A program made the translations under genes and the position numbers. A DNA stretch of 64,000 nucleotides from an uncultured Planctomycetaceae bacterium (GTDB taxonomy: Bacteria > Planctomycetota > UBA1135 > GCA-002686595): positions 83,753 to 147,752 of the forward strand of contig CAYQKK010000002.1 of the NCBI GenBank assembly GCA_964417955.1, given 5' to 3'. Each line of letters begins with the position of its first letter. Positions within the stretch are counted from its first letter, which is position 1. A model generated the notes under the pieces. The model was given only the letters and a program-made list of their open reading frames with translations, was not told the origin of the DNA and did no database searches. This document shows positions 3,840 through 20,264 of the stretch, piece after piece.

Positions 3840-3844
3840 GATCT

Positions 3845-4012
3845 CAAGTGCTCCGGATCAGAAGTTCGTTGAATTGGTTTCAGTCACTTTCGTTTCGTAG
3901 CAAGGCGTCCGAACCGCAGCGCGTAGCAGTAGTTCCGTCCAAGGTTCGGCAACGCAGCTACGGAGCGAAAGGGGCGAAACGAATTCAACGAACTTCTGAT
4001 TCGGGGCACTAG
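3845..4012 (+). mobile_element. 168-bp long-hairpin element, copy 1 (MITE-like or structured RNA)
   Basis: Imperfect inverted repeat 3845-3901 / 3957-4012 bounded by CAAG...CTAG; core AAGGCG-t-CCGAACC...GGTTCGG-CAACGCA shared with the copy at 18458. Confidence 0.6.
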
Positions 4013-4180
4013 CCCCATTGTTTCTCATGGTGGAACAGGGGGCACCCAGTATGAACCCCAAGGCGAGGTGGACGGAGACCATTCTTCATTCGGATAGCTA
4101 GACCCAGGCGTCGAAGAGAAAGGATGTCGCTGGGCGCCAGGCCTAGGGACGGCCCTGGAACCCAGACAGACTGAATCGCG

Positions 4181-5242
4181 ATGAACACGGCTAGCTCCCA
4201 CTTCGAATCCGCCCCCGTCCCGTCAGCGATCACGATCGAGCGCCTGATGGCATCCCTGGTCGGCGACATCCGAGCCCACGGGATCCAGCGGGCTCTCGTC
4301 TTCCCAGAGGGTGAGGATCGGGGCGCTGTCTCGCGCGCAGAGTTAGCGCTCGCCCTTGCGGGGCTGCTCTTCGAGGACGTCCAGCGCCGCGTGCCCATGG
4401 CTCGCGCCTACGTCGAGGATTCAGTGAACGCCGGCCACGCTTTGACCTTCGACCACGGCGCGCTACGCACGGTCGCCAGCAACTGCGGAAGCCTGCCCTC
4501 GGGCGCCGAGGCCTTCGCTCGGATCCTCGAGCCCCTCGGCTACCGCCGGGTAGGCACCTACGATCTCTCCAAGATCCACATGACGGGCTTCTCGTACTGT
4601 CACGAGGACTTGCCCGAGGCGATCCCCCAGTACTTCGTCTCAGAGCTGCACCCCGAGCGCTTCTCCGACAACTTCCAGGCGGCGGCAGCCCGGGTCGTGG
4701 GCGAGAGCCAGGACCCGCTGACCCCGGAAGCGATGGACATTCTGGAGCGCCTCAGCCGCGCCGGTTCCCTAGAGATGGACGACGCCCGCCGCGTCCTCCC
4801 CGAGCTCTTCGCCGCCTTCGATCGACAGCACGAGGAGCCGACGGTCGAAGACTATGAGACTCTTCTCGCGGAGAGCGCCGAGATGGCGTGGATCTCCACC
4901 GAGGGCAATGCGTTCAACCACGCCACCGATCGCGTAGACGATGTCTTCGCCGTCGCAGAGGGCCAGAAGGCGCTGGGACGACCGATCAAGGAGGCCGTCG
5001 AGGTTTCGCGCAACGGCAACGTGCTGCAGACAGCGTTCCGGGCCGCGATGACCCAGCGTCTCTTCCGCTCCGCCGCCGGCCACATGGTCGTGCGCGAAGT
5101 CCCCGGATCGTTTCACGAGTTCATCACGCGCAAGACGCTGCCGAGCGGCGAGCTGGACCTCACCTTTGACGCTGGCAACGCCACGTCGATCTTCAAGATG
5201 ACCGCAGGTACGGAAGCAGCGGGGCAGCAAGAGTCCGCCTAA
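4181..5242 (+). CDS. DUF1338 family protein (2-oxoadipate dioxygenase/decarboxylase, HglS/YdcJ-like)
   Basis: TFDHGALRTV, PQYFVSELH, WISTEGNAFNHATDRV and FHEFITR motifs typical of DUF1338. Confidence 0.75.
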   Translation: MNTASSHFESAPVPSAITIERLMASLVGDIRAHGIQRALVFPEGEDRGAVSRAELALALAGLLFEDVQRRVPMARAYVEDSVNAGHALTFDHGALRTVASNCGSLPSGAEAFARILEPLGYRRVGTYDLSKIHMTGFSYCHEDLPEAIPQYFVSELHPERFSDNFQAAAARVVGESQDPLTPEAMDILERLSRAGSLEMDDARRVLPELFAAFDRQHEEPTVEDYETLLAESAEMAWISTEGNAFNHATDRVDDVFAVAEGQKALGRPIKEAVEVSRNGNVLQTAFRAAMTQRLFRSAAGHMVVREVPGSFHEFITRKTLPSGELDLTFDAGNATSIFKMTAGTEAAGQQESA

Positions 5243-5304
5243 CCGTCACGTCCCCAGGCAGAACCAGGCCCCGCTCGTACTCCCGCCAGTTCGTGGCGCG
5301 ATAA

Positions 5305-8004
5305 CTACTCCAGCTGGACTGTGGCGTTGCCGCCACCCAAGAGCTCTACTTCGCCGGCGTACTCCGCCCTTGGACCTTCGTTCGTGCCGAAGACGGCTTC
5401 GCCGGTGCCGATGCGATTGGGCGCAATGCGTTCGTCAAAGATGGATGCGCTGACCGTCCAACTTCCCGGGGCCACCCTTCCTAGGCGCCAACCGCGCGTG
5501 GCTTCATCGTATTCGACGCCAAAGCCCTCCTCGATCTCACCATCATCAAAGCCGATCGTCACGAGGGACCGAATCCGAGCTTCGCTCTTGGACACGAGCT
5601 TGATGCGCAAGCTTCCGTGCTCTGGGAGCTTGGCATCTTCGGGGAGCACGACCGTGACCGTGGCCGTCTCAAACGCCACTCTCTCGTCGACGGCCATGCC
5701 CAGGCTCATGTCCAACCTGGTGGTGGGGTGCGCGATCACCGACCAGCTATTGATGTGCAGGACTGGAATTCGCCTTCCACGCGCTCGGCCGTAGGCTGAT
5801 AGGCGGCCCTCTGCATCGGTGCGACCGACGTATGCCTCGTACGTCTCGTTGAAGTCCATGGTGAGGCGGTTGGGCCAGAAGTCCTCATCGACGAGGCGTA
5901 CTTCGATGCCCGGTACCGGCTCGCCGTCCAGCTCGATCTGAAGCTTGACCGGCACGATGTGGAAGTCGGTCAGGTCCATGGAGACCTGCACTTCACCGCC
6001 TGCTGGCACGTTCACCTCTAGGTTTCCACCCATGATGAAATCCTGGCGCAGCGCTCCCTGCCGGATCGTTCGAAGCCCAGCCGGAACTCCTTCCATTCGA
6101 AAGGAGCCGTCGGCCGCCACCTTAGCCGTGGGGAGCCCGACGAGATCGACGACCTCAATGAAGAGGTTCGTGGCGTCGATCGCTGGGTTCACCTGGACCT
6201 GGCCAACGATCGTGCCGCCCTGGACGAGCTCTAGATTGCCGAGGTCTGTGACCTCACCGAACCGCACGTTCACGGGTGGGATGCCCAGCGAATTCGCCTC
6301 TGACTGGGTCAGGACCGTGTAGCGACCCGGTGCAAGGTCGAGGACCGCAAACTCTCCGGTCTCGCTGTCCGCGGCCACTTCGGTGACCTGACCTTTCCTT
6401 TGCAGCGTCACGAAGAGATTGCCTTCCACCGGCGCGCGAGTCACGGACACGGTCGCGGCGGTGGGCGCTCCCGCTGTGGTCACTCGCCCCTTGATAGAGC
6501 CACCGCGGGACATAGAAATCGGCTGTAAGATATCCTCGGCCCCAGGCGTCTTGAACTGAGCGGGGCTGACGACGGGCCGTGTGACGCCGTCCACCCAGGT
6601 TGCGCCGGCGAGGTCGGCGTAGCGAATTGGATAGCCCTCCGCCGCAACGACCAAGAGGTCCCGGCCAGGCCGCCCAAAGACCTCGACGTAGCCGCCTTTG
6701 ACTTTTCTTACGCGAGGTTCGGAGCGCCGCCCAAATTCAGGCGCGTTCGCCTTCGAGCCACCGTCCCTCACGAGTAGCACACCGAACTCTTCCAGCGGCT
6801 CACCGGAAGCTTCGTCCACTGCGGTCACTCTCACGCGGGCAAGCGGCTTGAGCGTCAGGGTGACCCCGTCCTGAGTTCCAGCGATGCGCAAAGCCTGCGC
6901 AGCCGCGGATCGATACTCCGCGTGCCGCGGCGTGAGGTCGAACGCGAGGTTTGTAGGCAATGTCAGCTCGAAGTCACCGGACTCATCCGTGCGGGCCGAG
7001 GCGGACTTTGCGGACCTTGGACGTCCGACGGGTTCTGCCGTGACCGTGGCACCGGGCACGGGCTCGAGGTCGCTTGTCACGACACGTCCTCGAACGATGG
7101 GAGCGCTGAAGAGCTGCAGGCGTAGCGCCTCTAGCTCGGAGCCAGCGGCAACGGAAACTTCCAAAGGCGGCGAGTCCATCAGCCCATCGGCACTCGCTTG
7201 CAGGCGCCACTCCCCAGGGACGAGATGGCCCATGGAGAACGTGCCGTTCTCGTCCGTCTCCAGTTGGATGCGGTTCTCATCGTCAGAGGGCATCAAGAGA
7301 ACGCGCGCCTTCGGAATAGCATCGCCGGTTTCAGACACGACGGCTCCAGAGGCAGCGCCACACGGGACGAGGACGAGGTCTCCGAGCTCGCGGAGGCCGC
7401 CCTCGAGCGGCGCGGCACGGGTGCTCCCCTTGCCGAAGACGACGCTGGCGTAGCTGAAGAGAGGTCCTGCGCTGATGAAGAGCTCAGCTCGCTTCGCACT
7501 GGGCACCGGCGCATCGAGGACGAACTGACCTGTGGCGTCCGTCATCGCTTCGAAGCCAACCCAGCGTTCTTGACGCCGCGGTCCGAACTCGCCGAACTCG
7601 AGGGCTTCCTTCTCCTTGCTCCAACGACGCTTTGCCCCGAGTCGGCAGGTGAGGCCGGATAGCGGATTCCCGTTGGTGTCCAGGACCCGGCCTGTGACCG
7701 CGCACCGCCCGTCTGCCACTTCCACGGCGACTGAAGAAGACCCTGAAGAAGCCGCTACCACCGGCTGAATCGAGCGATCCTGCCCAACATCTCCAACGCC
7801 TTCCGAAGGTGCGAGTTCCGCGAGCGTAGCCATTGAATCTTCAGCGGGCCGCGGATCCACGAACTCCGCCGGGGAGACCGTGGAAGTCGACTCCGCGGGG
7901 AGCCGCCCCTCGACGGGTTCACTCTTGCCGAGGAGCTGATGGGCGACCACAGCGCTCGCGACGACGCCCACCAACAAGACAACCCGCTTGATCTTCGAGC
8001 TCAT
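5305..8004 (-). CDS. Membrane-anchored protein with repeated carboxypeptidase-regulatory-like (beta-sandwich) domains
   Basis: N-terminal TM segment (RVVLLVGVVASAVVA), then repeats of the form G-R-V-x-D-x-x-G-x-P...TD-x-x-G-x-F. Confidence 0.75.
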   Translation of the reverse strand: MSSKIKRVVLLVGVVASAVVAHQLLGKSEPVEGRLPAESTSTVSPAEFVDPRPAEDSMATLAELAPSEGVGDVGQDRSIQPVVAASSGSSSVAVEVADGRCAVTGRVLDTNGNPLSGLTCRLGAKRRWSKEKEALEFGEFGPRRQERWVGFEAMTDATGQFVLDAPVPSAKRAELFISAGPLFSYASVVFGKGSTRAAPLEGGLRELGDLVLVPCGAASGAVVSETGDAIPKARVLLMPSDDENRIQLETDENGTFSMGHLVPGEWRLQASADGLMDSPPLEVSVAAGSELEALRLQLFSAPIVRGRVVTSDLEPVPGATVTAEPVGRPRSAKSASARTDESGDFELTLPTNLAFDLTPRHAEYRSAAAQALRIAGTQDGVTLTLKPLARVRVTAVDEASGEPLEEFGVLLVRDGGSKANAPEFGRRSEPRVRKVKGGYVEVFGRPGRDLLVVAAEGYPIRYADLAGATWVDGVTRPVVSPAQFKTPGAEDILQPISMSRGGSIKGRVTTAGAPTAATVSVTRAPVEGNLFVTLQRKGQVTEVAADSETGEFAVLDLAPGRYTVLTQSEANSLGIPPVNVRFGEVTDLGNLELVQGGTIVGQVQVNPAIDATNLFIEVVDLVGLPTAKVAADGSFRMEGVPAGLRTIRQGALRQDFIMGGNLEVNVPAGGEVQVSMDLTDFHIVPVKLQIELDGEPVPGIEVRLVDEDFWPNRLTMDFNETYEAYVGRTDAEGRLSAYGRARGRRIPVLHINSWSVIAHPTTRLDMSLGMAVDERVAFETATVTVVLPEDAKLPEHGSLRIKLVSKSEARIRSLVTIGFDDGEIEEGFGVEYDEATRGWRLGRVAPGSWTVSASIFDERIAPNRIGTGEAVFGTNEGPRAEYAGEVELLGGGNATVQLE

Positions 8005-8133
8005 AGCTCAAGTGTATCCGTCGCCCTCCGAATGCGGGCGTGGCTGCTGTTGGTTGGCCGTCTCTGGCGCCGAAGGTCGATCGAGGCTCCGTCTCGACTA
8101 ACGTTCGCTGAACTCAGGGCAACGTCGCGCCCG

Positions 8134-9153
8134 CTACTTACGCCGCAGCGTCTCCCACGTCTTTGACAGCCCGTGCAGGGCGCGAGCAGGCAGGTCCCGC
8201 AGCCTCTTTGGGGGCATGCGAACGCGCGAAGGGAGCGGACGCGGATAAGTCTGCACGTTCCTCGCAGCGCCGAGCGCAACATCACGGCCGCGGTAGCGCG
8301 GCGTGACGAATGAGTCCGTGGCAATGTCGATGACTTCGCGGAAGCAGAGCCTGCCCGCCACCAGATCCGACGCCATCGGCAGGTAGTAAAGCCCCTCGTC
8401 GAAGTAGTAGTGCGTCACCTGACTCTTGCGCGTCGACTTGGGATCGGAAACCGCGCTGCCGCCGTGGAACAGGTTGGCGCTCCACACGATCGCCTGTCCC
8501 TTGCGCACCGTCATCGGCTGCGCTTCGTAGCCTGAGCTCGCCAGGATGTCGCGCACCTTGACCTCGTAGCCGCCGTACGCCTCGGAGCGTGCGTCGAGCC
8601 CAAGATCTGTCATCTCGTACGTCGGCAGGCGGTGGCTACCGGGGTACACGACAAGGGGGCCGCTGCCGGCCTCAATGTCTTCCAAGGCGAACCACACGCC
8701 GCACATGAAGTGGCGCGGCACACAGTGGAAGTGAATCGTGTCGCTGTGCGCAGCCTGCTCGGTCCCGTGCTCGAAGTTCAGTGTTTGGAACGGGATGGGA
8801 CGCCGCTGGTAGAGGGCCGCAAGTCGGTCGAGAACCTTCGGATGCGCCGCGAGTTCAGCCACGGCGTCCGACGTATACCACGCCTCGACCACGCGGTTCC
8901 CGGCGTCCGCGTGCATCGGGCCCACATCGCTGAGCACGCGCGCGGCGAGGTCATCGAACTCATCGATGTCGAGGTCGAGCACCACGTAGCCGTCGCGCGC
9001 CAGCTTGCTCAGATCCTCGGCATCGCGGCCCCGCAGCGCGCCGCTCTGCAGGAACTCGTCCAGAAAGGGCGAGTCGTGCGGCGGTACGTCGAGACCACGT
9101 AGGCGTTCGGGCGATTTAGGAGACACGGGATCGATTGAACAAGAGTCCATCAC
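8134..9153 (-). CDS. Phytanoyl-CoA dioxygenase (PhyH) family Fe(II)/2-oxoglutarate dioxygenase
   Basis: HSDTIHF (HxD), GVWFALEDI, GPLVVYPGSH, LFHGGS, RKSQVTHY; 9 bp downstream of the sulfatase. Confidence 0.85.
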   Translation of the reverse strand: MMDSCSIDPVSPKSPERLRGLDVPPHDSPFLDEFLQSGALRGRDAEDLSKLARDGYVVLDLDIDEFDDLAARVLSDVGPMHADAGNRVVEAWYTSDAVAELAAHPKVLDRLAALYQRRPIPFQTLNFEHGTEQAAHSDTIHFHCVPRHFMCGVWFALEDIEAGSGPLVVYPGSHRLPTYEMTDLGLDARSEAYGGYEVKVRDILASSGYEAQPMTVRKGQAIVWSANLFHGGSAVSDPKSTRKSQVTHYYFDEGLYYLPMASDLVAGRLCFREVIDIATDSFVTPRYRGRDVALGAARNVQTYPRPLPSRVRMPPKRLRDLPARALHGLSKTWETLRRK

Positions 9154-9162
9154 GGTAGCTGA

Positions 9163-10635
9163 TCAGTCCAGCCGTGAGCTGTCCGAGGACCGCGCGGCGT
9201 TGATCTTCTTCTGTAGTTCGCCGCTTCGATCGCGGTGCGACTCGACGAGATTCGCGGACTCGAAGGGGTCGTCGCACACGTTGTAGAGTGCCCGCACGAC
9301 ACTTGAAGAATCTCGCCTCAACCCTTCACCGCTGGTGGGGACGCCTTCAACATACTTCCAGTCACCCTCCCGGATGGCAAATGTGCCGAGGAGGCAGCGG
9401 GTGACAAAGGGTGCTGCATCGGTGCGGTCCATGGGCTCTCCCAGGCAGGCAGGGTAGACGCTCACGCTGTCCTCTGCGCCGTTGGTCTTGTCTGGAAGCG
9501 GTAGCTCCAAGGCCTCGGCCACGGTGGCGAAGGTGTCCACTAGATTGACACGAGTATCGGTGACGCGGGGCAAAAGCCTGCCGGGCCAACTGACGACGTA
9601 TGGCACAGCCGTACCGCCATCTTCAATCATGCCTTTTCCGCCGCGTACGTTGCCGTTGTACTCCAACCCGGCTTGGCGAGCTAGGTAGCCGAAGTAGTTG
9701 TGCTTGCGCCGACGTGACGTTTCGTCACTCTCGTCACCGCGGACTCCACCATTGTCCGAGGTGAAGATAAAGAGCGTGTTCTCGCTGCGTCCGCTTCGAT
9801 CGAGCGCGTCCATCAGCTGACCAAGGCTCCAGTCAACGTCCTGGATATACTCGGCATAGGGCCCGGCCTTGCACGTTCCGGTGAATCGCGCGGAGGGGGT
9901 GATTGGTTCGTGCACGGCCGTGGCAGCGAAGTAGAGGAAGACTGGCTTCTCCTCGGGCTGTGCGTCCAGCCAAGTCACGGCCTTCTCTACCAGCCGGTCC
10001 ATCACCTCTTCGTCCACGCGCTGCGGTGCATCGATTCCAAGGAACTTGCGTCCGTAGGTCGACGCCCTGGCAATGGGAACGATCTTGTCCGACCGTTTCC
10101 CCCAGACCGAGTCTCCTTCAAGGTAGATGCCGCTCTTGTCACCGTGGTTGTTGGGCACGCCAAAGAAGTAGTCGAAGCCCACAGCAAGCGGGCCTGAACG
10201 CGAGGGCCCAAACAGTCGCTTGGGATGGCTCTCTCCACGACCGAAACCGAGGTGCCACTTGCCGATGATCGCCGTCGTGTAGCCCTGCTCTCCTAGGAAT
10301 GTCGCGATCGTCGGACGCTCGGCATCAATCGCGAGCGGGTCGGTGACCTTCACTAAGCTGGAGTTCCGATTCTTGCGCCAGTAGTAGCGCCCCGTGAGCA
10401 GGCCGTAGCGCGAGGGCGAGCAGACCGCCGACGGAGAATGGGCGCGGGTGAACCGCACGCCGGACTTTGCCAACCGGTCAATGTTCGGTGTCGCGAGCAG
10501 GTCTGCGGGAGCGCCGTAGCATCCGGCGCTGCCTCGCCCAAGATCATCCGCGAGGAAGATCACCACATTGGGTCGATCTGTCGTCAATTGAGCAGACGCC
10601 AGCAACGCTAGACCGATGCAACCAGTGATCACCAT
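9163..10635 (-). CDS. Sulfatase (arylsulfatase A family)
   Basis: PNVVIFLADDLG, formylglycine motif CSPSRYGLLTGRY, IGKWHLG, TSDNG. Start at 10635 (MVITGCIGLALLASAQ signal) is preferred over the ORF-track start at 10773. Confidence 0.9.
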   Translation of the reverse strand: MVITGCIGLALLASAQLTTDRPNVVIFLADDLGRGSAGCYGAPADLLATPNIDRLAKSGVRFTRAHSPSAVCSPSRYGLLTGRYYWRKNRNSSLVKVTDPLAIDAERPTIATFLGEQGYTTAIIGKWHLGFGRGESHPKRLFGPSRSGPLAVGFDYFFGVPNNHGDKSGIYLEGDSVWGKRSDKIVPIARASTYGRKFLGIDAPQRVDEEVMDRLVEKAVTWLDAQPEEKPVFLYFAATAVHEPITPSARFTGTCKAGPYAEYIQDVDWSLGQLMDALDRSGRSENTLFIFTSDNGGVRGDESDETSRRRKHNYFGYLARQAGLEYNGNVRGGKGMIEDGGTAVPYVVSWPGRLLPRVTDTRVNLVDTFATVAEALELPLPDKTNGAEDSVSVYPACLGEPMDRTDAAPFVTRCLLGTFAIREGDWKYVEGVPTSGEGLRRDSSSVVRALYNVCDDPFESANLVESHRDRSGELQKKINAARSSDSSRLD

Positions 10636-10883
10636 GACTCGAAACCTGATGGCTGTCCCCGATACATTCGCAGCATTCGCACGGGCGTACAGTAAGTACC
10701 CAGGTCCAATTCCGCCATTCCCCCGAACGGAGAACGCTGCGAGAGGGACGCTTGGCAGATTCCGTCCCGCCAACCCTCACGGGTCGAAGACACCGCGCTG
10801 GGGAACGGTGGAAACGACTACGGATCGGCTCCACTGGTCAACCCCAATGGACAGAGGCGCCGCTCCTGGGATCCGCCTGATTG

Positions 10884-13466
10884 CTACTGGCAGAGGTTCC
10901 GGATGACCGTGACGCTGCCTCCGATCCTCTCTGTAGCCAAGATATCAAGGCGCCCGTCGCCATCGATGTCTCCGAGGACGCCGTCCCCGGGGGCGAAGCC
11001 CAACCCGTAGCGAGTGGGGTCCCCCCAAGTCAGGTCGCCGCCGCCGAGGAACACGCTTGCCACTTGCCCCATGGTGACCACGTCCAGATGGCCGTCGAGG
11101 TCGATGTCGCCCACCGCTAAGCCGTCGATGAAAATCCCGTGGAAGGGCACGGCCTGGGCTGGCGCGAAACTGAAGCCCCCGAGGTTCTCGAACACCTCGA
11201 AGGTGAACTCGTTCAAGGTAACGACGTCCGCGTCTCCGTCTCCGTCAAGATCGGCCGTGATCATCTCCCGGACTCTTCGGTCGGTGGCGATCTGAATGGG
11301 GGCGCCAAACAATCCTTGACCGTTCCCGGGCATGACCGTGAAGCCCGTGAACGGCATCTCGTGAACCGAGAAGACGGCGTCGAGGTGGCCGTCCTGGTCA
11401 AGGTCCACAAGGTCTAGACCGCCCGGCGTCGCACCTTGCTCGTAGATCGGGCCCTGCTGTTGAAAAGTGCCAGCACCGTTATTCAGGAAGACGCTGAGCC
11501 CCCGCTCGGGAGCAAGCCCCTGATTGGTGACCACAAGGTCCACGTCTCCATCTTCGTCCACATCTGCGAAGGCCACCTCGCCCGGCCGAATGGCCGTCGG
11601 GAGATCTTGACGGCCATCAAAGACGCCGCCGCCTCGGTTGAAGTAGAGCGTAACGGTGTTGCCCGAGTAGTTTGCAACCGCCAAGTCCGGGTCGCCGTCT
11701 GCATCGACATCGCCCAGCGCCACATGGATCGGGGACTCCCCCACCGAGAGCGCAGGCGCCAGCTGGAACGAGCCGTCGGGACGTCCTATCCCGATGGAGA
11801 CAGTGTCGTCGAAACTGCTCGCCACCACGAAGTCTTGGTTGCCGTCACCGTTCACGTCCCCAAGCACCAGCCCGTCCGGACTGCGTCCCACCTCGAAGGA
11901 GTCCAGCGTATGAAAACCAGCATTGCCGTCACGGGTGATCACGATGATGTCGGAGGAGTTCATCAGGGGCGCAACGAGCTCAAGCCCCGGTGCCCCATAG
12001 AGGTCGACAGCGACCACGGACCGGGGCACCCGGCCAGTAGGAACCTGAACGGGCGCTAAGAAGGTCCCGTCACCGAGCCCTTCGAAGAACTCAAGTCTCG
12101 ACTTCCCAGACGCGCGGGCGCCGATCAGGTCGAGGTCTCCGTCGCCATCAATATCGGCCGCATCCAAGTGCCCTAGTGCGGCGGATGCAGTGAGCGCGGA
12201 CGTACCGCTGAACGTCCCATCGCCCGCGCCGAACATGACCAGCAAATCAAGGCCGATTGAATTGGCGACTGCGAGGTCTACGTGGCCGTCGCCGTTGAAG
12301 TCGCCGACGTCGAGCTGGATCGGACGGCCCGTAGCCGTGGTGTACTGTCCCGAGCCAGAGAAGCTCCCTCCGGTGTTCATCCAGATCGCGACGGTTCCGC
12401 TGTCGTTGCCGATCACAAGATCTTCGTCTCCGTCAGCGTTGAGATCCACGAGCTTGACCGCGCGCGGGGTGTTCGTGCTCACGAGGGTGGTCCACGGGGT
12501 GAGCAGTCCGCCGCCGCTGTTGCGGAGAACCGTGACGGTGTTGACCGTCCAAGCCGCGTCGGCCACCACGACGTCGAGGTCGCCGTCCCCGTCGATGTCG
12601 CTGAGGTCAACGCCGGCGAGCTCGGAACCCACCTGAACAGGGACCTGCGGCGTAAACGTGCTACCGCCTTGATTGATGACAACGGACACCGTGCCCGACG
12701 TGAAGTTGGAGGTCACGACGTCTAGTTCGCCGTCGCCATCCATGTCCCCCACCGCGAGCCCCGTGGACTCGGCGCCGAGGTCGATCGGAATGAAGTCGAG
12801 GAAGCGGCCGTCCCCCGTCCCGAGGAGGATGCTGAGCCAGTTCGACTCATCACTGTTCTTGACGACATCCATGAAGCCGTCTCCGTTGAAGTCGGCCGCC
12901 TCGATGAGGTCGGCCGAGCCGTACGTCACAAAACGCGCGCCGGGAAAGAAGCCGCTCCCGAGTTCGCAGCGACCGGAGAACTCAATCTCTAAGCCGTCGC
13001 TGAAGTTCGAGGTGGGTCCCGCAGGGCTGGTATCCCGGTGCCAGTATTGGAAGGAAACCGTGTCGCCGGGGCTGACGGCGTAGGGACCGAGGGGATCAGG
13101 GATCGCACCGAGGTCGATGGGGAGCGAAACGATTCCCGTCGAACCCGTGACCTGAACGGAATTGACGTAGCGCCCAACAGGCTGACTCAGGCAGAGGTTG
13201 CCCGCCGAGCCGGCGGGGTTCGCGACGAAGCCGCGCGTCATGCTGGCCAAATAGTAGCCAGTCGATCCAACCGGGAGCTGCTGGCACTGGAGGGTCAGCT
13301 GGTTGGCGTTGACGTTCGCGCTTCCGCCGGCACCCATGGATGCGGCGGAGCCGGTGGAGTTGGGTGCAGCCGCGCAGTAGTTGGTGCCGAGCTGGGCGGT
13401 CGCTGCGGAAGCGAGCGCCAGCAGCGAGAGAAGTGAGAGCGGCGCGCTAGTGAGCGTGAGGGCCAT
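10884..13466 (-). CDS. Secreted FG-GAP/VCBS repeat protein with the two-Cys module at its N-terminus
   Basis: Signal peptide, module at aa 26-163, then about 12 D-x-(N/D)-G-D-G-x-x-D repeats. Confidence 0.85.
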   Translation of the reverse strand: MALTLTSAPLSLLSLLALASAATAQLGTNYCAAAPNSTGSAASMGAGGSANVNANQLTLQCQQLPVGSTGYYLASMTRGFVANPAGSAGNLCLSQPVGRYVNSVQVTGSTGIVSLPIDLGAIPDPLGPYAVSPGDTVSFQYWHRDTSPAGPTSNFSDGLEIEFSGRCELGSGFFPGARFVTYGSADLIEAADFNGDGFMDVVKNSDESNWLSILLGTGDGRFLDFIPIDLGAESTGLAVGDMDGDGELDVVTSNFTSGTVSVVINQGGSTFTPQVPVQVGSELAGVDLSDIDGDGDLDVVVADAAWTVNTVTVLRNSGGGLLTPWTTLVSTNTPRAVKLVDLNADGDEDLVIGNDSGTVAIWMNTGGSFSGSGQYTTATGRPIQLDVGDFNGDGHVDLAVANSIGLDLLVMFGAGDGTFSGTSALTASAALGHLDAADIDGDGDLDLIGARASGKSRLEFFEGLGDGTFLAPVQVPTGRVPRSVVAVDLYGAPGLELVAPLMNSSDIIVITRDGNAGFHTLDSFEVGRSPDGLVLGDVNGDGNQDFVVASSFDDTVSIGIGRPDGSFQLAPALSVGESPIHVALGDVDADGDPDLAVANYSGNTVTLYFNRGGGVFDGRQDLPTAIRPGEVAFADVDEDGDVDLVVTNQGLAPERGLSVFLNNGAGTFQQQGPIYEQGATPGGLDLVDLDQDGHLDAVFSVHEMPFTGFTVMPGNGQGLFGAPIQIATDRRVREMITADLDGDGDADVVTLNEFTFEVFENLGGFSFAPAQAVPFHGIFIDGLAVGDIDLDGHLDVVTMGQVASVFLGGGDLTWGDPTRYGLGFAPGDGVLGDIDGDGRLDILATERIGGSVTVIRNLCQ

Positions 13467-13642
13467 GAAAGCGAGAGGTGAGGTCTGGGATGACGTGGGA
13501 TGCGCCTATCAAGGGTACTGGGCCGATGCCCCCTACGCCGAAGTTCGAGAAAACGAGAGCTCTGGGACTGCGCTCCGGGGCCCACTTGGAGCTTTTCAGT
13601 CTCGAATGGAAATCCACAATGGGCCGCGCGTAGGGTCAAGCC

Positions 13643-14833
13643 ATGGGACCCCTCACTCTTCCGACGGTTGCCGCTGCGACCCTCATTGCCTTCCCCTCTC
13701 TCGCTCGCGCCAACGTCGGGGTGTTCTCCGGATCTGGTCATACGGTCAAGCTCAGCGAGTCAGCTGAGGTGCAGCTCGTTCGGGAGCGCGTGGAGATCCA
13801 CCCCCACCGGGGGCCGCGGCTCTTTGCCGGAGGTGCGCCCGTTGACCGCGTGGACTTTGACTGCACGTTCGAGCTGCGGAACCTGAGCGATCAGGCGGTT
13901 GCGATCCAGGTGGGCTTCCCCCTCGACTCCCAGTTCTTGTCTCGGCCCTACGATCCCAAGGCGGAGTCCGAGACGGCGGATCTCGTGCACGAGTACGGCT
14001 TCATCGCCCGCGACGACAGCCGGACCTACCACACCTCGTTCCAGCCGTACACTGAGAGCTACGGTTCGACGTTTCTGTGGTCCATGGACTTCGCTCCGGG
14101 TGAGACCCGAACCCTGCGCGTATCGTATGGCATGGACATGTCGTCCAGTCTGGGCGACATGCTCGTTCAGGGTGAAGATCGTGAGGAGTACTACAAGACG
14201 GCGCTTGCGGCGAGAAAGGCGGTGGAGGAGCTTCCATGGCTGCAGCATCAGAACGGCGCGATCGCTGAGGGCTTCCAGTACATCACCGCCACGGGTGCAT
14301 CGTGGGCAGGGACGATCGAGCGCGCTGAGTTCATCGTCTACACATGGCAGTTCGAGGAGTACCTCAGCGTGCGTGCCCCCATAGAGGTTTCTCCCCTCGA
14401 CGATGGCCGAGGGGCTTCGATGTTCGGCAACTATCCAACGCGCTTCACCAGGGACATTCGACCGACCGGGTACGAGTCAAGGGATCTGAAGGCACGGGAA
14501 GGGAAGGAGGCGTCGCTCAAGTGGACGTATGCGCCCTTCGACGCGGGCGAGCCCCTCGTTGGCCGCTACCTCAAGTCTGCCGTCCCGTCGACGGCCGAAG
14601 GCGCTCTCGTTTTTTGTCGAAAGCTCGTCGAGGAGCACAGCGCGGACCTGAATCTCGTCCGCCAGTACTTTGCGGCATGGATGGGAAGCGCGCCAATCCA
14701 CGAGACGCTCCGGAGCTACTGCGCGACCCAGCGCTGGTACAAGCCCGTGGACGACTGGCGAATGGACGACCTCGGCGAAGCGGACCGCGCGATCTTGGTC
14801 GCCATCGATCAGTTGATTCAAGAAGCCAAGTGA
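13643..14833 (+). CDS. Secreted DUF4424-like protein
   Basis: Signal peptide ending LARA|NVG; FELRN...VGFP, FAPGETRTLRVSY, YITATGASWAGTIERAEF. Confidence 0.6.
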   Translation: MGPLTLPTVAAATLIAFPSLARANVGVFSGSGHTVKLSESAEVQLVRERVEIHPHRGPRLFAGGAPVDRVDFDCTFELRNLSDQAVAIQVGFPLDSQFLSRPYDPKAESETADLVHEYGFIARDDSRTYHTSFQPYTESYGSTFLWSMDFAPGETRTLRVSYGMDMSSSLGDMLVQGEDREEYYKTALAARKAVEELPWLQHQNGAIAEGFQYITATGASWAGTIERAEFIVYTWQFEEYLSVRAPIEVSPLDDGRGASMFGNYPTRFTRDIRPTGYESRDLKAREGKEASLKWTYAPFDAGEPLVGRYLKSAVPSTAEGALVFCRKLVEEHSADLNLVRQYFAAWMGSAPIHETLRSYCATQRWYKPVDDWRMDDLGEADRAILVAIDQLIQEAK

Positions 14834-14879
14834 ACGGCGGGGTTAGGCGGGACCGAGCACTGTCGATAGACTCTGCGGG

Positions 14880-16295
14880 ATGTCCACCAATACCTCTCCC
14901 GCTGGAACGGCGGGCCAGCTAGAAGCCAATCTTGTCGCCAGCCTTGGGGCTGACTGCGTCTTCACCGAAGCGCCTGACCTCGCCGCCTATGAGAGCGGTT
15001 GGCGCTACGGCCACGGCAAGGCGCGGGCCGTGTGCAAGCCGCGGACGGTGGAGGCCGTCGCGTCGGCGGTGGCGCTCTGCCGCGCGGCGGGCGTTCCGGT
15101 GCAGCCGATCGGGGCGAACACGGGTCTCGTCGCCGCGTCGAACCCAGACGACTCAGGCGAGATGATCGTGCTCTCGCTAGAGCGACTCTCGAAGACCGTT
15201 CAATACTTTCCGGAAGACGGCACGGTCCTCGTCGATGGCGGTGTCCTTCTCTCTCAGCTGAACGAAGAGCTGAAGAAGCACGGTCGAACCTTCCCCATCG
15301 ACCTGGGCGCGGACCCGCAGATCGGCGGCATGATCGTGACGAACACCGGTGGGTCACGGCTTGTGCGCTACGGCGACGTTCGCGCGAACCTCTTGGGCGT
15401 CGAAGTGGTGCTCCCCACCGGGGAGATCCTGAGCGAGCTGAGGCGGCTCGCTAAAAACAACACCGGCCTCGATGCCAAGCAGCTGTTCGTGGGCACCAGC
15501 GGCGCCTTCGGCATCGTGACCCGCGCTACGCTGCGCACTTGGCCCCTGCCGAAGCAAACCGCGGGCGCCCTCGTTTGCGCGCATTCAGGGGGCGCGGTCG
15601 TGGAGCTGCTCCAGCGCATCGAACCCCACGTCGGCGACTTCCTCAGCGCGTTCGAAGCCATCTCTAAGAACGCCACGGAAGCGGTTCTCCGGCACGGCTC
15701 CCTAGATCGTCAACCGTTCGCAGACGGCGCCCCTGCCTATGCGGTCTTGGTAGAGCTGCAGTGCAGCCTACCGCCGGAGACCCTAGACCTAGAGGACGTC
15801 CTTGGCATGGCCCTCGCAGATGCGATGGAGGAGATGCCCGAGGGCATCGATGACGTGGTCGTTGGCGACGTCGAGGACTTCTGGTCGATCCGCCACCAAG
15901 TGTCTGAGTCATTGCGCGAGGACGGCGTTGTCCTCGGTCTTGACGTCTCGACGCCGCGGGGAGACATGGCGCGCTTCACGAGCGAGGTGGAGCGCCGCGT
16001 GGGAGAGGTCGCGCCCGACGTGCGCGTTTGCGACTTCGGCCACTGGGGCGACGGCGGTAGCCACCTCAATCTCGTGCTCGACTCTTCGCTCGAGTCAGGG
16101 GCTCTCGCCGTGCTAAAGAGCCAGCTCCAGGAACTCGTCTACGGCATCTGCGTCGATGAATTCGGCGGCAGCTACAGCGCCGAGCACGGCGTCGGGCCCC
16201 ACAACATCAAGGCTTACCACCGCTATACCAACCCCTTGGTGCGAGAGATTTGCGCGAGGGTCGCACCGGACCGCTTTGGAACGGTCGACCTATAG
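14880..16295 (+). CDS. FAD-binding oxidoreductase, D-2-hydroxyacid (D-2-hydroxyglutarate-like) dehydrogenase family
   Basis: IGGMIVTNTGG, KNNTGLDAKQLFVGTSGAFGIVT, GHWGDGGSHLN, SAEHGVG. Confidence 0.85.
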   Translation: MSTNTSPAGTAGQLEANLVASLGADCVFTEAPDLAAYESGWRYGHGKARAVCKPRTVEAVASAVALCRAAGVPVQPIGANTGLVAASNPDDSGEMIVLSLERLSKTVQYFPEDGTVLVDGGVLLSQLNEELKKHGRTFPIDLGADPQIGGMIVTNTGGSRLVRYGDVRANLLGVEVVLPTGEILSELRRLAKNNTGLDAKQLFVGTSGAFGIVTRATLRTWPLPKQTAGALVCAHSGGAVVELLQRIEPHVGDFLSAFEAISKNATEAVLRHGSLDRQPFADGAPAYAVLVELQCSLPPETLDLEDVLGMALADAMEEMPEGIDDVVVGDVEDFWSIRHQVSESLREDGVVLGLDVSTPRGDMARFTSEVERRVGEVAPDVRVCDFGHWGDGGSHLNLVLDSSLESGALAVLKSQLQELVYGICVDEFGGSYSAEHGVGPHNIKAYHRYTNPLVREICARVAPDRFGTVDL

Positions 16296-16433
16296 CGGGC
16301 GGCATGCACAGCGCCAACGGAGCAGATCCTGGGCCGCTCTGATACGGTCTCTGGAAGTTCCCGTCCGCTGACAGCCACACGCGCAGCTCTTTCGCAAGCG
16401 ACGCCAGTGTCAGACCTATTCTTCCCTACGACA

Positions 16434-17720
16434 ATGATGCCTAAGTTTAGCTTCGCCCTCGCGGCCCTCGCTCTCACAGCTCCCGCCCTCGCACAAGGTG
16501 GTGACACCTGCGACGTCCCCACCACCCTTCCAGGCCTCGGTTCCTTCTCTTTCGACACAACGCCCGCCACCACGAGCGGATTCGACGGCCTCGCGGGATG
16601 CGGCCTATTCCTGATCAACCAGGATCTCTTCTTTGAAGTCACCGCTCCCATCACGGGAGAACTGGTCATAGACACCCTCGGGTCGACCTTTGACACCTGG
16701 CTCTCCGTACATGGTGCGGGAGGCTGCGCTGCCACCTGCATCGCCACCAACGACGATTCGTCGGGTCTCACGAGCGAGGTACGCATACTCGTCACCGCAG
16801 GAGACGAGCTTCTGATTCAGGTGGGCGGCTTCGGAACCTCATCCGGTGCTGGGCTACTCAACTTGGCGGACGCGGGCCCAAGCTGCGCTTCGCTCCCCGA
16901 CGACATGTTCGAAGACAACGATGACTGCCCTACTGCCTTTCTATTGGGCGACGGCACCTACACCGACCTGAAGGTCTTGGACACGGACAACGACTACTTC
17001 ACCTTCTCGCTTGATGCGGGTGCCACCGTGGACGCGTCGATCTTCTTCAGCGACGCGGAGGGCGACGTCGACCTCTACCTTTGGAATCCGCTCGTGGAGT
17101 GCGACACCAACGTGGCGGGTACTGGCGGCGCGTTCCTCGTGCGCGGATTCAGCGCGACAGACGATGAGGTCATCACGTACACCAACATCACCGGCGCGTC
17201 CCAGCAGCTGGTGCTCGAGATTGACATGTTCACGCTGGGTGGCTGCAACACATACGACCTTGTGCTCGCAGGGGTAAGCGCCTCAGGCGGCAGCGTAGGT
17301 ACGGCGTATTGCATGGCCGCTCCGAACTCCACGGGGAGCCCGAGCTCGATCAGCGGCTTTGGATCCTCGGCCGCGGCCGACAACCAGCTAGAGCTCACGG
17401 TCAACGGCCTGCCCCAGGACTCGTTTGGCTACTTCCTGAGCGCCACGACCGCCGCCTTCGTCCCGCTGGCCGGTGGCAGCCAAGGCAACCTCTGCCTGGG
17501 CTCGAACATCGGTCGCTTCGTCGGAGACATCCAGGTGCTGAACTCGGGCGCGTCCGGCACGTCGAGCCTCGCGGTGGATCTGACCGCGGTGCCCCAGCCG
17601 GGCGGCTCTGTGGCCGTGAACGCGGGGGAAACCTGGTTCTTCCAGCTCTGGCACCGTGACTCATCGAGCGGCATGAGCACGTCGAACTTCTCGGACGGCC
17701 TCGAGGTTCTGTTCAACTGA
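16434..17720 (+). CDS. Secreted acidic protein with PPC-like domains and C-terminal two-Cys module
   Basis: MMPKFSFALAALALTAPALAQ signal; FEDNDDC, DNDYF, FFSDAEGDVDLYLW; module at 17295-17720. Confidence 0.8.
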   Translation: MMPKFSFALAALALTAPALAQGGDTCDVPTTLPGLGSFSFDTTPATTSGFDGLAGCGLFLINQDLFFEVTAPITGELVIDTLGSTFDTWLSVHGAGGCAATCIATNDDSSGLTSEVRILVTAGDELLIQVGGFGTSSGAGLLNLADAGPSCASLPDDMFEDNDDCPTAFLLGDGTYTDLKVLDTDNDYFTFSLDAGATVDASIFFSDAEGDVDLYLWNPLVECDTNVAGTGGAFLVRGFSATDDEVITYTNITGASQQLVLEIDMFTLGGCNTYDLVLAGVSASGGSVGTAYCMAAPNSTGSPSSISGFGSSAAADNQLELTVNGLPQDSFGYFLSATTAAFVPLAGGSQGNLCLGSNIGRFVGDIQVLNSGASGTSSLAVDLTAVPQPGGSVAVNAGETWFFQLWHRDSSSGMSTSNFSDGLEVLFN

Positions 17721-18444
17721 CCAGTGGCGCAGCACGTTGGAACTGCCAGCGTGCGCGGCCCGAACGCGCGGGATCAACGCGAATCCCTGGACCCACGGGA
17801 AGTTGATGCGCTTGCTCAGCAGTGCATACCAAGTTCACGTAGGCCACCAGCGGTTCGTCGATCCACGCTTGGGCCACGGACGAAAGCGGCGGACCGAGGA
17901 GGTCACTTCCTCGGCCGTAGGGCGCGTCCCCCACGATGTAGAGCGGTGGGCTATCAGGCTCGGCTGTCATGGTCGCCAGCTGTTCTTGGGCCAGGGCGCA
18001 CTCGACCCGGGTCGCCACCGCTGTCTCGGCGGCCCGCTCGATCCTCGGCAGTAGCCGCCTCAGGTATCCTTCCACTTCGCCCCAGCGTCGATCGGACTTT
18101 GGGTTCTGGCCGCGGAGTCCGGCGACGTAGCTCAACCGCTGCGTAGCCGCCGCGACGTTTGACACGAGGGCCAAGTTCTTGGCTGACGCTTCAACCGCTG
18201 CGGTGGAAGCGTCTGAGCCAGCTATCGCAGAAAAGGCGCCCGGGAAGAAGACGCGCGCGAGTGCCGGAATGAGACCGCTACCGGCGAACGGGTCCCAAAG
18301 GCATCCGGCTCCGGCGCTGAGCTCCGCCGCCTCGCCCACCATCGCCCAGGCGAGCCGCGGTGAGAACCGCACGGCGTCCGAGTTCTCGAAGCGCCAGAAG
18401 AGCCGGCCGTGGGCAAAGAACTCAGGGTCGAAGTCAGGGTCCAT
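17713..18444 (-). CDS. AviRa-like SAM-dependent rRNA methyltransferase
   Basis: FSPRLA...LWDPFAGSGL...AGSDAS...AKNLALVS...GDAPYG parallels my recollection of Streptomyces AviRa (FPVRLA, LWDPCCGSGY, ASDVD, AKNLALLS, TDLPYG). Start at 18444 preferred. Confidence 0.65.
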   Translation of the reverse strand: MDPDFDPEFFAHGRLFWRFENSDAVRFSPRLAWAMVGEAAELSAGAGCLWDPFAGSGLIPALARVFFPGAFSAIAGSDASTAAVEASAKNLALVSNVAAATQRLSYVAGLRGQNPKSDRRWGEVEGYLRRLLPRIERAAETAVATRVECALAQEQLATMTAEPDSPPLYIVGDAPYGRGSDLLGPPLSSVAQAWIDEPLVAYVNLVCTAEQAHQLPVGPGIRVDPARSGRARWQFQRAAPLVS

Positions 18445-18457
18445 GGAGGATGTGATT

Positions 18458-18625
18458 CTAGGAGCCTGCGCCACGGAACGCGGATTCGATGGTGCGGTCA
18501 GGATCTGCGCCAGCAAGGCGCGTCCGAACCCCGCATGGTCGGCTCCATTCGGGGTTTGGCGCAACGCAGCTGGCGCTGATCCTGGCCGTGCCAGCGGATT
18601 CGCGTTCCGTGGCGCAGACTCCTAG
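18458..18625 (+). mobile_element. 168-bp long-hairpin element, copy 2 (MITE-like or structured RNA)
   Basis: 57-bp inverted repeat 18458-18514 / 18569-18625 with 8 mismatches; CTAG at both ends; core AAGGCG-cgt-CCGAACC...GGTTTGG-cg-CAACGCA. Confidence 0.65.
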
Positions 18626-20100: not shown

Positions 20101-20264
20101 GCCTGGAATAAGCGCTAAGGATCGTCAGATCGTGCAGCAGTGCCGTGGCCGTGGTCCTTTCGAGGATGATGCCTGGCTAGTCAGGTGAATCCTCGAAGCG
20201 AAGCGCAAGGGCCGCGGACGCGGCGGCGCTGCGCGAAACGCAGTGGTCTGTCGATTCTTAGCGC

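Follow-up and report, generated by a model that had tools for sequence, protein, structure and literature searches.

Two hairpins of 168 nt, each between divergent genes, lie within the stretch of 64,000 nt that was analysed as a whole (the window). Their arms seemed unrelated while their centres agreed, and the original prediction saw in them a non-autonomous mobile element or structured RNA, recognised by its shape and core rather than by its terminal sequence. What kind of element are they, and how might such an element spread?

Two hairpins and their family

Sequence and fold confirmed both hairpins, which are near-perfect (Table 1). The folding energy of copy 1 is -106.7 kcal/mol, as against -47.4 +/- 4.3 for shuffles (z -13.9), and that of copy 2 is -140.7 kcal/mol (z -15.9 against shuffles). 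The paired motifs AGCAAGGCG and CAACGCAGCT, with 42-43 nt between them and 60-61 nt from the first base of the former to the last base of the latter, occur exactly twice in the window and not once in shuffles. Past the CTAG the arms of the two copies could not be aligned, as predicted, and their outermost 38 nt are unrelated. Copy 2 is bounded by CTAG on both sides, copy 1 by CTAG on the right and by CAAG, a decayed CTAG, on the left. A PLP decarboxylase gene on the minus strand (its start codon is at 3839) and, on the plus strand, an HGLS-type gene (start at 4181) flank copy 1; copy 2 is flanked by an AviRa-like methyltransferase gene (minus strand, start at 18444) and an ORF without assigned function (plus strand, start at 18724). 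Both copies are upstream of start codons, 5 nt away for copy 1 and 13 nt away for copy 2, and so lie in or adjoining 5' UTRs.

Table 1. Coordinates of the two hairpin elements and their parts in the window
Feature	Position	Strand	Description
Copy 1, full hairpin MITE, subfamily G	3845..4012	+	168 bp; sequence, fold, covariance-model match (55.6 bits)
Copy 1 left TIR, IS630 type	3845..3886	+	CAAGTGCTCCGGATCAGAAGTTCGTTGAATTGGTTTCAGTCA; 27/38 identity to both TIRs of the G012 IS630-family IS
Copy 1 core	3901..3957	+	CAAGGCG 3901-3907; P2 CCGAACC/GGTTCGG; apical hairpin ~3921-3938
Copy 1 right TIR	3971..4012	+	reverse complement CTAGTGCCCCGAATCAGAAGTTCGTTGAATTCGTTTCGCCCC; 28-29/38 identity to IS630 TIRs
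Copy 2, full hairpin MITE, subfamily E	18458..18625	+	168 bp, CTAG...CTAG; sequence, fold, covariance-model match (46.7 bits)
Copy 2 5' arm	18458..18513	+	begins CTAGGAGCCTGCGCCACGG; terminus type common to subfamilies A, B and D
Copy 2 core	18514..18569	+	CAAGGCG 18514-18520; P2 CGTCCGAACCCCG/CGGGGTTTGGCG; CAACGC 18562-18567
Copy 2 3' arm	18570..18625	+	with the 3' half of the core, recurs alone as 3'-half copies

The genome scan and covariance model that had been suggested as a check recovered further copies as well as support from covariation. The metagenome-assembled genome (MAG), which comes from seawater, holds 49 full copies (covariance-model matches) in at least seven subfamilies on many contigs, together with about 31 half copies. 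Subfamily G has 7 full copies genome-wide, and subfamily E has 2 full and 3-4 3'-half copies. Every copy is flanked by CTAG or YTAR, and head-to-tail tandem copies have a period of 164 bp with one CTAG in common. Every subfamily has terminal inverted repeats (TIRs), and the entire element is a hairpin. The termini do not vary freely across the family, the subfamilies having common terminus types: CTAGGAGCYTG..., CTAG(G/C)AG(G/C)CCGTTGAA... or CTAGTGCCCTGGATCAG.... Within the genus the distribution is patchy, with either 0 or 40-50 copies per genome (9 in one genome, G036), which agrees with the predicted non-autonomous mobile element. Neither empty sites nor polymorphic sites were recovered in congeners or source metagenomes. 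The element is short (below 300 bp), non-coding, dispersed in multiple copies and bounded by TIRs, as bacterial MITEs are, and both hairpins are copies of a MITE family of about 168 bp, palindromic over its whole length, at CTAG sites.

Element ends and a transposase partner

The TIRs of an insertion sequence in G012, a closed genome of the same genus, are identical to the ends of subfamily G and of copy 1 at 27-31 of 38 positions. This transposon encodes a transposase of 374 aa (NF033545, 265 bits) and belongs to the IS630 family. Both of its copies in G012 directly adjoin G-type MITEs, with the CTAG in common. IS630 elements insert at TA within CTAG. The partner is of this type, and not of the IS5 type to which the CTAG ends had been linked. 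Because its ends match IS630-family TIRs, copy 1 is, as far as they are concerned, an ordinary transposase-dependent MITE, which speaks against recognition by shape rather than by terminal sequence. An exact match to the ends of a known IS had been named in advance as the mark of an ordinary MITE, and by that mark copy 1 is one as far as its ends go. Those of copy 2 agree with the IS630 TIRs at only 11-16 of 38 positions. Repeated searches found no partner IS for copy 2 or for other subfamilies of the CTAGGAG type. An IS that codes for a transposase and fits in its ends was found for copy 1 (subfamily G) and not for copy 2 (subfamily E). Each subfamily carries TIRs of its own that either derive from a DDE transposon or match one.

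The core is absent from the autonomous IS630 element, of which the MITE is therefore not a simple deletion derivative. RUP of Streptococcus pneumoniae is an IS630-family MITE that is thought to depend on IS630-Spn1. With such MITEs the present family has in common IS630-like TIRs, insertion at TA (here within CTAG), lack of coding capacity and multiple copies. It differs from them in not being an IS deletion derivative, in carrying several TIR classes on one core, in its strand-specific fold and in having half copies of the 3' side only.

The core and its relatives

Between the arms lies an asymmetric core of about 55 nt that is the same in every subfamily. Going inwards from the outer stem, a CAAG loop on the 5' side is followed by a GCG/CGC helix, then by a CAA bulge in the 3' strand, a helix of 10-13 bp that covaries and, at the tip, a short hairpin. 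In copy 1 the bulge is CA (3950-3951), followed by CGC within CAACGC (3950-3955), and in the core of subfamily G A3952 is paired with T3908 (window positions in copy 1); the apical hairpin of copy 2 is ATGG-TCGGCT-CCAT. Across subfamilies 89% of the cells of the core are paired, a share that drops to 63% on shuffling and to 33-40% in slid controls, and double-change cells number 215 as against 70 in shuffles, controls which related sequences may pass without selection. The same covariation pattern was seen across phyla, and CAAGGCG/CAACGC is invariant from the marine MAG to Neisseria while arms, P2 helix and TIR classes turn over. The core is a real, covarying, strand-specific fold under selection, and in this the selected single-strand fold of the original prediction was borne out. 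The proposed search of Rfam gave no family: in Rfam 15 the window had no match at the gathering score, and the elements had none even at E<=1.

Beyond what was predicted, the core is that of a known element, the Correia element (CREE). A covariance model built from this MAG only (R1) matched a 105-bp CREE of Neisseria gonorrhoeae (29.7 bits, E 6e-5). The same model gave 60 matches at E<0.01 in loci of many phyla, although these loci were chosen by a pattern that holds the invariant motifs and R1 scores there are partly circular. In the gonococcal element the sequence runs ...TCAGGA-CAAGGCG-(39 nt with an apical GTAC hairpin)-GCAACGC-TGTACTGG..., so that the CAAGGCG...GCAACGC core stands in the same register in both, directional and between inverted repeats, and both are non-coding MITEs that target TA and fold into a hairpin. 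The two cores are homologous, and such a core occurs in many phyla. CREE has been described as confined to Neisseria (PMC2649163), a restriction not shared by the core, with its seawater MAG and its matches in many phyla. The Correia TIR of 26 bp (TATAGTGGATTAA...) is absent from this family, the terminus classes of which are CTAGTGCCC..., CTAGGAGC... or CTAGSAGSCCG.... The family therefore does not count as a strict CREE, the core alone being in common. Furthermore, its arms are about 57 bp in a fixed 168-bp element, compared with about 25-30 bp in Correia; P2 is Watson-Crick here, whereas in Neisseria and many other phyla it has C-G plus tandem G.A steps; and the long Correia form with an IHF site has no counterpart. 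According to the literature the enzyme that mobilises Correia elements is unknown (PMC2649163).

ERIC/IRU (127 bp) and YPAL/RU-2 (168 bp) of enterobacteria are likewise imperfect palindromes over their whole length, with TA insertion and hairpin transcripts. YPAL equals the present element in length, and its published sequence has no such core (PMC2759123). E. coli ERIC has GAAGGCG and AACGCAG at comparable places; R1 scored it at 4.9 bits (E 0.32), and no relationship was shown.

Strand asymmetry, half copies and a possible route of spread

The predicted G-U-compatible mismatches proved far stronger genome-wide. Among 28 gapless full copies the arm mismatches comprised 183 G.T, 6 A.C and 104 others, and the strand carrying the core in sense (+) was the more stable in 40 of 40 copies (mean difference 25.8 kcal/mol). 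The differences between sister subfamilies from which the G.T sites derive are of two kinds, T<->C (36) and G<->A (22), and reflect selection of wobble pairs and not deamination alone. The G.T bias fits an RNA hairpin equally well; the folded strand may work as RNA or as single-stranded DNA, both being compatible with it.

A second asymmetry lies in the half copies. All 31 independent half copies, across subfamilies, are 3' halves, and 5' halves number 0 (p 9e-10). They are about two thirds as numerous as full copies (31 versus 49) and are present in every one of ten representative groups except A; lone 3' halves of the copy 2 type lie at C10:61528, C32:49131 and C190:53. Half copies begin at the hairpin apex (element positions 79-87), usually with flank-CTA(G)|apex at the 5' junction. 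They may be new insertions or in-situ deletions. The orientation of the element showed no bias towards genes or replication. In tandem-gene settings 10 full copies were sense and 6 antisense, and halves 4 and 5, by crude gene calls that left 46 of 90 copies not classifiable. In closed genome G012, with dnaA as origin, 18 copies ran with replication and 25 against it (p 0.36). This pattern argues against host RNA use and against lagging-strand targeting.

Could the folded strand act simply as RNA, as a target of RNase III or RNase E, a stabiliser of mRNA, a terminator or a regulatory sRNA, with DDE mobility a separate matter and the core kept for the sake of the function of the RNA? G.U wobble is a classic signature of RNA helices, and the 183 G.T against 6 A.C, the covarying fold and the position of both window copies in or near 5' UTRs all suit this reading. 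Transcribed Correia elements, moreover, have been reported as RNase III substrates and carriers of promoters (PMC2649163, PMC10969869). Host selection on transcripts should, however, give a bias in gene orientation, and there was none (10/6 for full copies, 4/5 for halves); Rfam was silent even at E<=1, and 3' halves that all start at the apex are left unexplained unless a reverse transcriptase is added. We regard an RNA role of this kind as a minority possibility. Adding the reverse transcriptase gives SINE-like spread, in which reverse transcription of hairpin RNA would be primed at a nicked CTAG and the 3' halves would represent cDNA that stops short of the 5' end. Loss of the 5' side alone, the 3' end being intact, is the hallmark of target-primed reverse transcription, and exactly such copies are found, with selection on the fold of one strand. 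Yet RVT_1 does not track the element, with none in G002 (47 copies) or G036 (9 copies) and only a broken fragment in G000; the element ends in inverted repeats that match a DDE transposon, TA/CTAG stands at both junctions without a 3' tail, and all truncations fall at the apex rather than being scattered. Such spread seems very improbable.

It is also improbable that an HUH (Y1) transposase moves the element in the form of single-stranded DNA, as in IS200/IS605 derivatives (PATEs) or RAYT-moved REPINs; such an enzyme would recognise the core hairpin, with CTAG as its cleavage or target tetranucleotide. Strand-specific hairpins with a fixed flanking tetranucleotide are typical of HUH chemistry and are seen here, alternative cleavage at the apical loop would yield 3' halves, and Y1_Tnp is multi-copy in several element-rich genomes (6 in G000, 11 in G012, 14 in G018, 56 in G036) and absent from five element-free congeners. 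The HUH nuclease looked for as a co-occurring gene nevertheless does not track the element: Y1_Tnp is missing in the carriers G002 (47 copies), G014 and G020, present in G028 (0 copies), and no copy in the closed genome has a Y1 gene within 20 kb. HUH elements have no need of long TIRs, whereas subfamily G has TIRs of 38 nt that match an IS630 element, and IS200/IS605 elements show a strong replication-strand bias that is lacking here (18 versus 25). The predicted mode of recognition resembles that of integron attC sites and of REPINs, which RAYT (HUH) transposases move: a folded single strand is recognised there, strand-selectively and by shape more than by sequence. Long TIRs that match a DDE transposon are lacking in them, and in attC and REP it is the hairpin base that is conserved, in the present element the apex; the latter element has no linked HUH or integrase gene and no replication-strand bias. 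A plain double-stranded MITE, its core kept by descent, its pairing by palindrome-internal gene conversion and its halves as decay products, would suit the IS630 TIR match and the TA/CTAG sites, which are wholly ordinary, and shuffle controls may be passed by related sequences even where no selection acts. Neither gene conversion nor descent produces 183 G.T against 6 A.C, however, and the polarity of 31 to 0 among half copies is likewise unexplained. The invariant CAAGGCG/CAACGC also persists amid the turnover of arms, P2 and TIR classes from MAG to Neisseria, and the IS630 element lacks the core, which does not fit a simple deletion derivative. We consider a plain MITE unlikely.

The best explanation, to which we give roughly an even chance, is that the element propagates through a single-stranded, folded stage of the CAAGGCG-sense strand, most probably a hairpin of DNA on which a DDE transposase acts. 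The strand would become single-stranded and fold, being extruded or excised while the DNA is single-stranded, and the base of the hairpin would restore one duplex terminal repeat with a free 3'-OH, the substrate of a DDE transposase. DDE strand transfer joins the 3' end only. With a hairpin broken at the apex, only the 3' half would stay joined to the target, and on this proposal the half copies would all be 3' and start at the apex for that reason. The conserved core would either set off or stabilise folding or attract a universal host factor to the apex. To our knowledge, IS630/Tc1-mariner enzymes have to date been shown only to cut and paste double-stranded DNA.

More tentatively, the core of about 55 nt could be a portable module, active as a single strand and carried in different bacteria by MITEs that belong to unrelated transposon families. 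One strand would then snap into a hairpin, the base of which mimics the transposon end. If so, an ordinary DDE transposase (IS630-type, perhaps IS5-type) could lift and insert a single-stranded DNA copy, the duplex donor meanwhile undergoing repair or replication, a replicative route that would account for MITEs outnumbering their parent elements. Hairpins broken at the apex would have left the 3'-half copies as scars, and the invariant CAAGGCG/CAA-bulge/CAACGC junction would be where the universal host factor docks (a nuclease, polymerase, primase or protein of the SSB type, for instance). Short Correia derivatives and 'single repeats with partial core' have been reported in Neisseria (PMC2649163). 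The picture of half and short forms seems less simple there: a palindromised 3' half makes up the 72-bp form, and a rearrangement has split one Neisseria CREE at its apex.

The two window hairpins and their family

As single strands, both copies form hairpins with almost no interruption (see table; z-scores are relative to dinucleotide shuffles). Their arms gave no alignment with each other, and the pattern AGCAAGGCG, 42-43 nt, CAACGCAGCT was present in both; the window contains it at these two places alone, and 100 shuffles produced it in no case. Copy 1 lies between genes for a PLP-dependent decarboxylase (left, - strand) and an HGLS-type protein (right, + strand), and copy 2 between an AviRa-like methyltransferase gene (left, - strand) and an unknown ORF (right, + strand). 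The original prediction of two 168-nt hairpins with unrelated arms and common core motifs, each between divergent genes, was thus borne out. The gap between the element and the start codon of the gene to its left is 5 nt for copy 1 and 13 nt for copy 2. The promoters of these two genes must accordingly be located within the element or on its far side. Outward promoters are known to be supplied by Correia elements (CREE), which are MITEs of Neisseria.

The window corresponds to C2:83753-147752 of the source assembly (6.52 Mb, 243 contigs, 64.9% GC), and among sequencing runs its sequence is present only in seawater and algal DNA metagenomes, with no RNA run among them. Thirty distinct cores were placed in a hand-registered, N-padded structural alignment, from which a covariance model of the core (R1) was built. 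Further copies were indeed found: the genome-wide search with R1 returned 49 cores, all of them in ~168-bp hairpins flanked by CTAG or a one-base variant. These copies sort into at least seven subfamilies, each with its own arms and its own sequence of the core helix P2. The termini read CTAGGAGCYTG... in subfamilies A, B, D and E (copy 2), CTAG(G/C)AG(G/C)CCGTTGAA... in F, CTAGTGCCCTGGATCAG... in G (copy 1) and CTAGTGGTG... in C. A single core is common to several TIR classes. Many copies are located at contig ends, a position expected of repeats, which break assemblies. No empty insertion site was recovered in congeners, which are only 70-78% identical and not collinear in intergenic regions, or in two sequencing runs of the source study, which carry the filled site and in which contigs break within the repeat. 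Some F2 copies measure 177-179 bp, with a motif of ~11 bp (CCAGAGTCAAG) repeated within the 3' arm.

Coordinates of the hairpin elements and of other features (G000, source MAG; G012, closed genome of the same genus)
Feature	Position	Length	Remarks
Copy 1	window 3845-4012	168 nt	CAAG...CTAG ends; fold -106.7 kcal/mol, z -13.9
Copy 2	window 18458-18625	168 nt	CTAG...CTAG ends; fold -140.7 kcal/mol, z -15.9
Junctions of copies 1 and 2 with leftward genes	window 3837-3848, 18442-18461		
Second hairpin MITE	window 20097-20279	183 bp	TIR CCTGRAATAAGCGCTAAGRATCG; DNA fold -64.6 kcal/mol, z -11.4
Longer F2 copies with CCAGAGTCAAG repeat	G000 C22:37119-37295, C31:13205-13383, C54:41965-42141, C1:83958-84134, C42:32715-32833		at least three tandem repeats in C42
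Short G-type half-core fragments	G000 C4:104739-104767, C79:9447-9491, C20:69932-69981, C33:6630-6664		
Tandem duplication	G000 C15:61206-65156	~1.9-kb unit	98.8% identical; F-type 3'-half element in each unit
Gene with weak Y1_Tnp domain (examples)	G000 C123:412-693, C69:29617-29898		
IS110-family gene followed by ATAGGAGCTTGTCGCGCGG	G012 C1:1162300-1164700		L162
DDE_Tnp_1 IS	G012 C1:1468785, 5148022, 6604186	1.7 kb	L168, L172

Selection maintains the fold of the core-sense strand

We tested a named structure for the core, consisting of a 9-bp outer stem, an AAG loop, GCG/CGC, a CAA bulge, the 11-bp P2 and an apical hairpin of 4-6 bp. Standard pairs filled 89.1% of cells, compared with 63.3% in shuffles and 33-40% in slid controls, and changes on both sides of a pair occurred in 215 cells against 70 in shuffles. 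Compensatory changes were seen in 21 of the 29 pairs; no variation was seen in the three GCG/CGC pairs or in the CAAG and CAA next to them. Rfam was also searched for a family that would accommodate the element; no match reached the gathering score, and none appeared with the cutoff relaxed to E≤1.

Across 56 arm positions in the 28 full copies whose arms align without gaps, pairing comprised 1219 Watson-Crick, 183 G·T and 6 A·C combinations and 104 other mismatches. The G-U compatibility of stem mismatches noted in the two window copies thus holds genome-wide, and no other observation on the element carries as much weight as this bias. In all 40 copies compared, the predicted fold of the core-sense strand (the one reading CAAGGCG) was more stable than that of the complementary strand, by a mean of 25.8 kcal/mol. 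At the G·T sites, sister subfamilies differ by T<->C (36) as well as by G<->A (22), which indicates that the element tolerates wobble pairs and that A·C pairs are purged; one-way deamination alone was rejected as the source of the bias, since G<->A differences contribute too. Selection maintains the fold of the core-sense strand.

Half copies, an IS630-family partner and a proposed single-stranded step

BLAST of subfamily representatives against the source genome identified, besides the full copies, 31 independent internal copies consisting of the 3' half only. Their start, at element positions 79-87, falls either within the apical loop or on the 3' side of the apical stem, and from there they extend to the 3' CTAG. 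When further halves cut at contig edges are included, they occur in all ten representative groups but A. The same search gave no 5' half ending at the apex (0 against 31, binomial p 9e-10); apparent 5' halves were TIR scraps of 26-54 nt or contig-edge truncations. Breakage thus takes place at a constant point, the apex, and the process has a polarity. At their new 5' junction the halves usually show flank-CTA(G) joined to the apex, and so they too sit at CTAG-type sites. Short fragments that start at the apex after CTAG and contain only a G-type 3' half core before other sequence were seen as well; these may have arisen by decay of halves, or they may represent another type of element based on the half core.

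Self-megablast of the source MAG revealed no repeat >600 bp in several copies, and no transposase adjoined its solo TIR fragments. The closed congener G012 (7.7 Mb) carries 50 cores and two copies of a 1.24-kb element encoding a 374-aa IS630-family transposase (PF13358; NF033545, 265 bits). The ends of this element, CTAGTGCCCYGCGGCAAAAGTTCGTCGAAATAGTTTT, match subfamily G TIRs at 29-31 of 38 positions and those of copy 1 at 27-29, compared with 11-16 for copy 2; a second IS630 element of the genus has 19 of the first 20 nt in common with them. Both IS copies adjoin G-type MITEs, with one CTAG common to IS and MITE, and MITEs in this genome also stand head to tail with a 164-bp period. IS630 elements insert at the TA of CTAG, and both arrangements fit such insertion. 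The IS does not contain the core, and hence the MITE is not its deletion derivative; it consists of a core set between IS-like ends.

The search for a co-occurring transposase that had been suggested yielded an IS with similar ends, in a congener, for copy 1 and none for copy 2, whose partner would carry ends (CTAG)GAGYCTGCGCCACGG. A pattern scan of G012 for the CTAGGAG-type ends returned only MITEs, halves and an IS110-linked repeat, and the plasmid collection held no partner for these ends. DDE_Tnp_1 elements of G012 were rejected as partners of copy 2, their ends (CTAGCCYGGAYTATTCACGA) being different. HUH (Y1_Tnp) nucleases, the other type of partner proposed, and reverse transcriptases were also rejected, as their genes neither track the hairpin element nor adjoin its copies. 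The elements are transposase-dependent MITEs at CTAG. The original prediction of a structure-conserved mobile element holds as to mobility, in a MITE family, and as to a covarying one-strand fold; recognition by shape rather than by termini does not hold, as copy 1 has IS630-like ends.

MITEs are everywhere in bacteria and out-multiply their parent transposons. For fish elements, Izsvak and colleagues reportedly proposed in 1999 that MITEs amplify from hairpins on single-stranded DNA. Two countable asymmetries, G·T over A·C (183 to 6) and 3' over 5' halves (31 to 0), point to a single-stranded step here. In the scheme we propose, the core-sense strand would pass through a single-stranded stage and, once folded, would restore a single duplex TIR whose 3'-OH is located at the base of the hairpin. 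This 3' end alone would be joined by DDE strand transfer, and were the apex nicked, only the 3' half would enter the target, which would account for the polarity of the half copies. The complementary strand, rich in A·C mismatches, would fail to fold, which would produce the strand asymmetry. The core might serve as a nucleus for folding, shield the apex or provide a docking site for a host factor.

A role of the folded strand as RNA is a serious rival to this scheme, as the G·T bias would suit an RNA hairpin equally well. Orientation bears on the choice. In tandem-gene settings, full copies were sense in 10 cases and antisense in 6, and half copies in 4 and 5, with crude gene calls that left many copies unclassified; in G012 (dnaA at position 811), 18 copies were co-oriented with fork movement and 25 opposed (p 0.36). 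The strand asymmetry, which does not depend on the location or orientation of a copy, is thus a property of the element's own propagation. The same result weakens host-level RNA selection and also an IS200/IS605-like lagging-strand mechanism. We favour DNA for the single-stranded stage, since no partner other than a DDE transposase was identified. Assignment to MITEs with an IS630 partner and a Correia-type core is held with high confidence; the single-stranded DNA hairpin is a tentative proposal that may well prove wrong. Even in that case the annotation is useful: start and stop codons are only a few bases away from the hairpins, which also disrupt assemblies and merit masking or modelling.

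The core beyond the genus, and neighbouring elements

Trained only on the source MAG, R1 matched a 105-bp Correia element of N. gonorrhoeae (29.7 bits, E 6e-5 in 50 kb), which reads TATAGTGGATTAACAAAAATCAGGA-CAAGGCG-39 nt-GCAACGC-TGTACTGG...CCACTATA. According to the literature, CREE occurs in Neisseria only, targets TA and has a conserved core with a direction; single repeats often carry partial core, and its mover has been undetermined since 1986 (PMC2649163). The conserved folded core links a marine uncultured high-GC bacterium to Neisseria, and for one subfamily a concrete IS630-family partner can be named. Scanning one genome per species for CAAGGCG-N37-42-GCAACGCAG gave at least 120 loci; the matches listed include Pseudomonadota, Acidobacteriota, Gemmatimonadota, Bacteroidota, Actinomycetota, Chloroflexota, Myxococcota, Planctomycetota, Spirochaetota, Bacillota and others. 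Long hairpins with YTAR flanks and various TIRs are frequent among these loci. In the first 100 of them, R1 gave 60 matches at E<0.01, including copies missed by the pattern, and covariation persists in an alignment fitted to the model. In a review of prokaryotic MITEs from 2024, a core common to several phyla is not mentioned (PMC10969869). As a MITE the element belongs to an ordinary class, and its combination of properties is unusual and apparently undescribed. ERIC contains look-alike motifs, a resemblance that is suggestive but not significant, and YPAL/RU-2 has the same length but does not share the core.

The gonococcal sequence came from a chromosome misfiled among plasmids; PLSDB lists two such 2.17-Mb chromosomes as plasmids, NZ_CP119140.1 and NZ_CP119142.1. 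In NZ_CP119140.1 (L194-L198), the 72-bp Correia forms consist of the 3' arm in perfect palindromic arrangement around CAAGGCGAGGCAACGC, and the 69-bp form arose by deletion between the two direct repeats of CAAGGCG. A rearrangement has split one gonococcal CREE exactly at the apical TA (L192/L193). The short and half forms of Neisseria, whose pattern is not clean, were excluded from the polarity count.

CTAG sites are contested by several unrelated elements of the genus. The window also contains a different CTAG-bounded, whole-length hairpin MITE of 183 bp, with ~45 copies in the genome, and the 168-bp elements often directly abut it with a common CTAG. Similar ends are found on an element with a 520-aa DDE_Tnp_1 in another genome, G013 (L175: CTAGCCCCCAAACAAGCGCAC). 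Two of the three G012 copies of a 1.7-kb IS (467-aa DDE_Tnp_1, ends CTAGCCYGGAYTATTCACGA) directly adjoin hairpin MITEs. A multi-copy gene of ~233 aa with a weak Y1_Tnp (HUH) domain, present in 11 copies in G012, 6 in the source MAG and 56 in a further genome (G036), is unlinked to the hairpin elements. In G012, an IS110-family transposase gene followed by the motif ATAGGAGCTTGTCGCGCGG occurs at five places, L162 among them. In two of these, a D-type hairpin MITE lies downstream of the motif at a constant distance of 617-618 bp, which suggests that an IS110/IS1111-type element targets or travels with this MITE.
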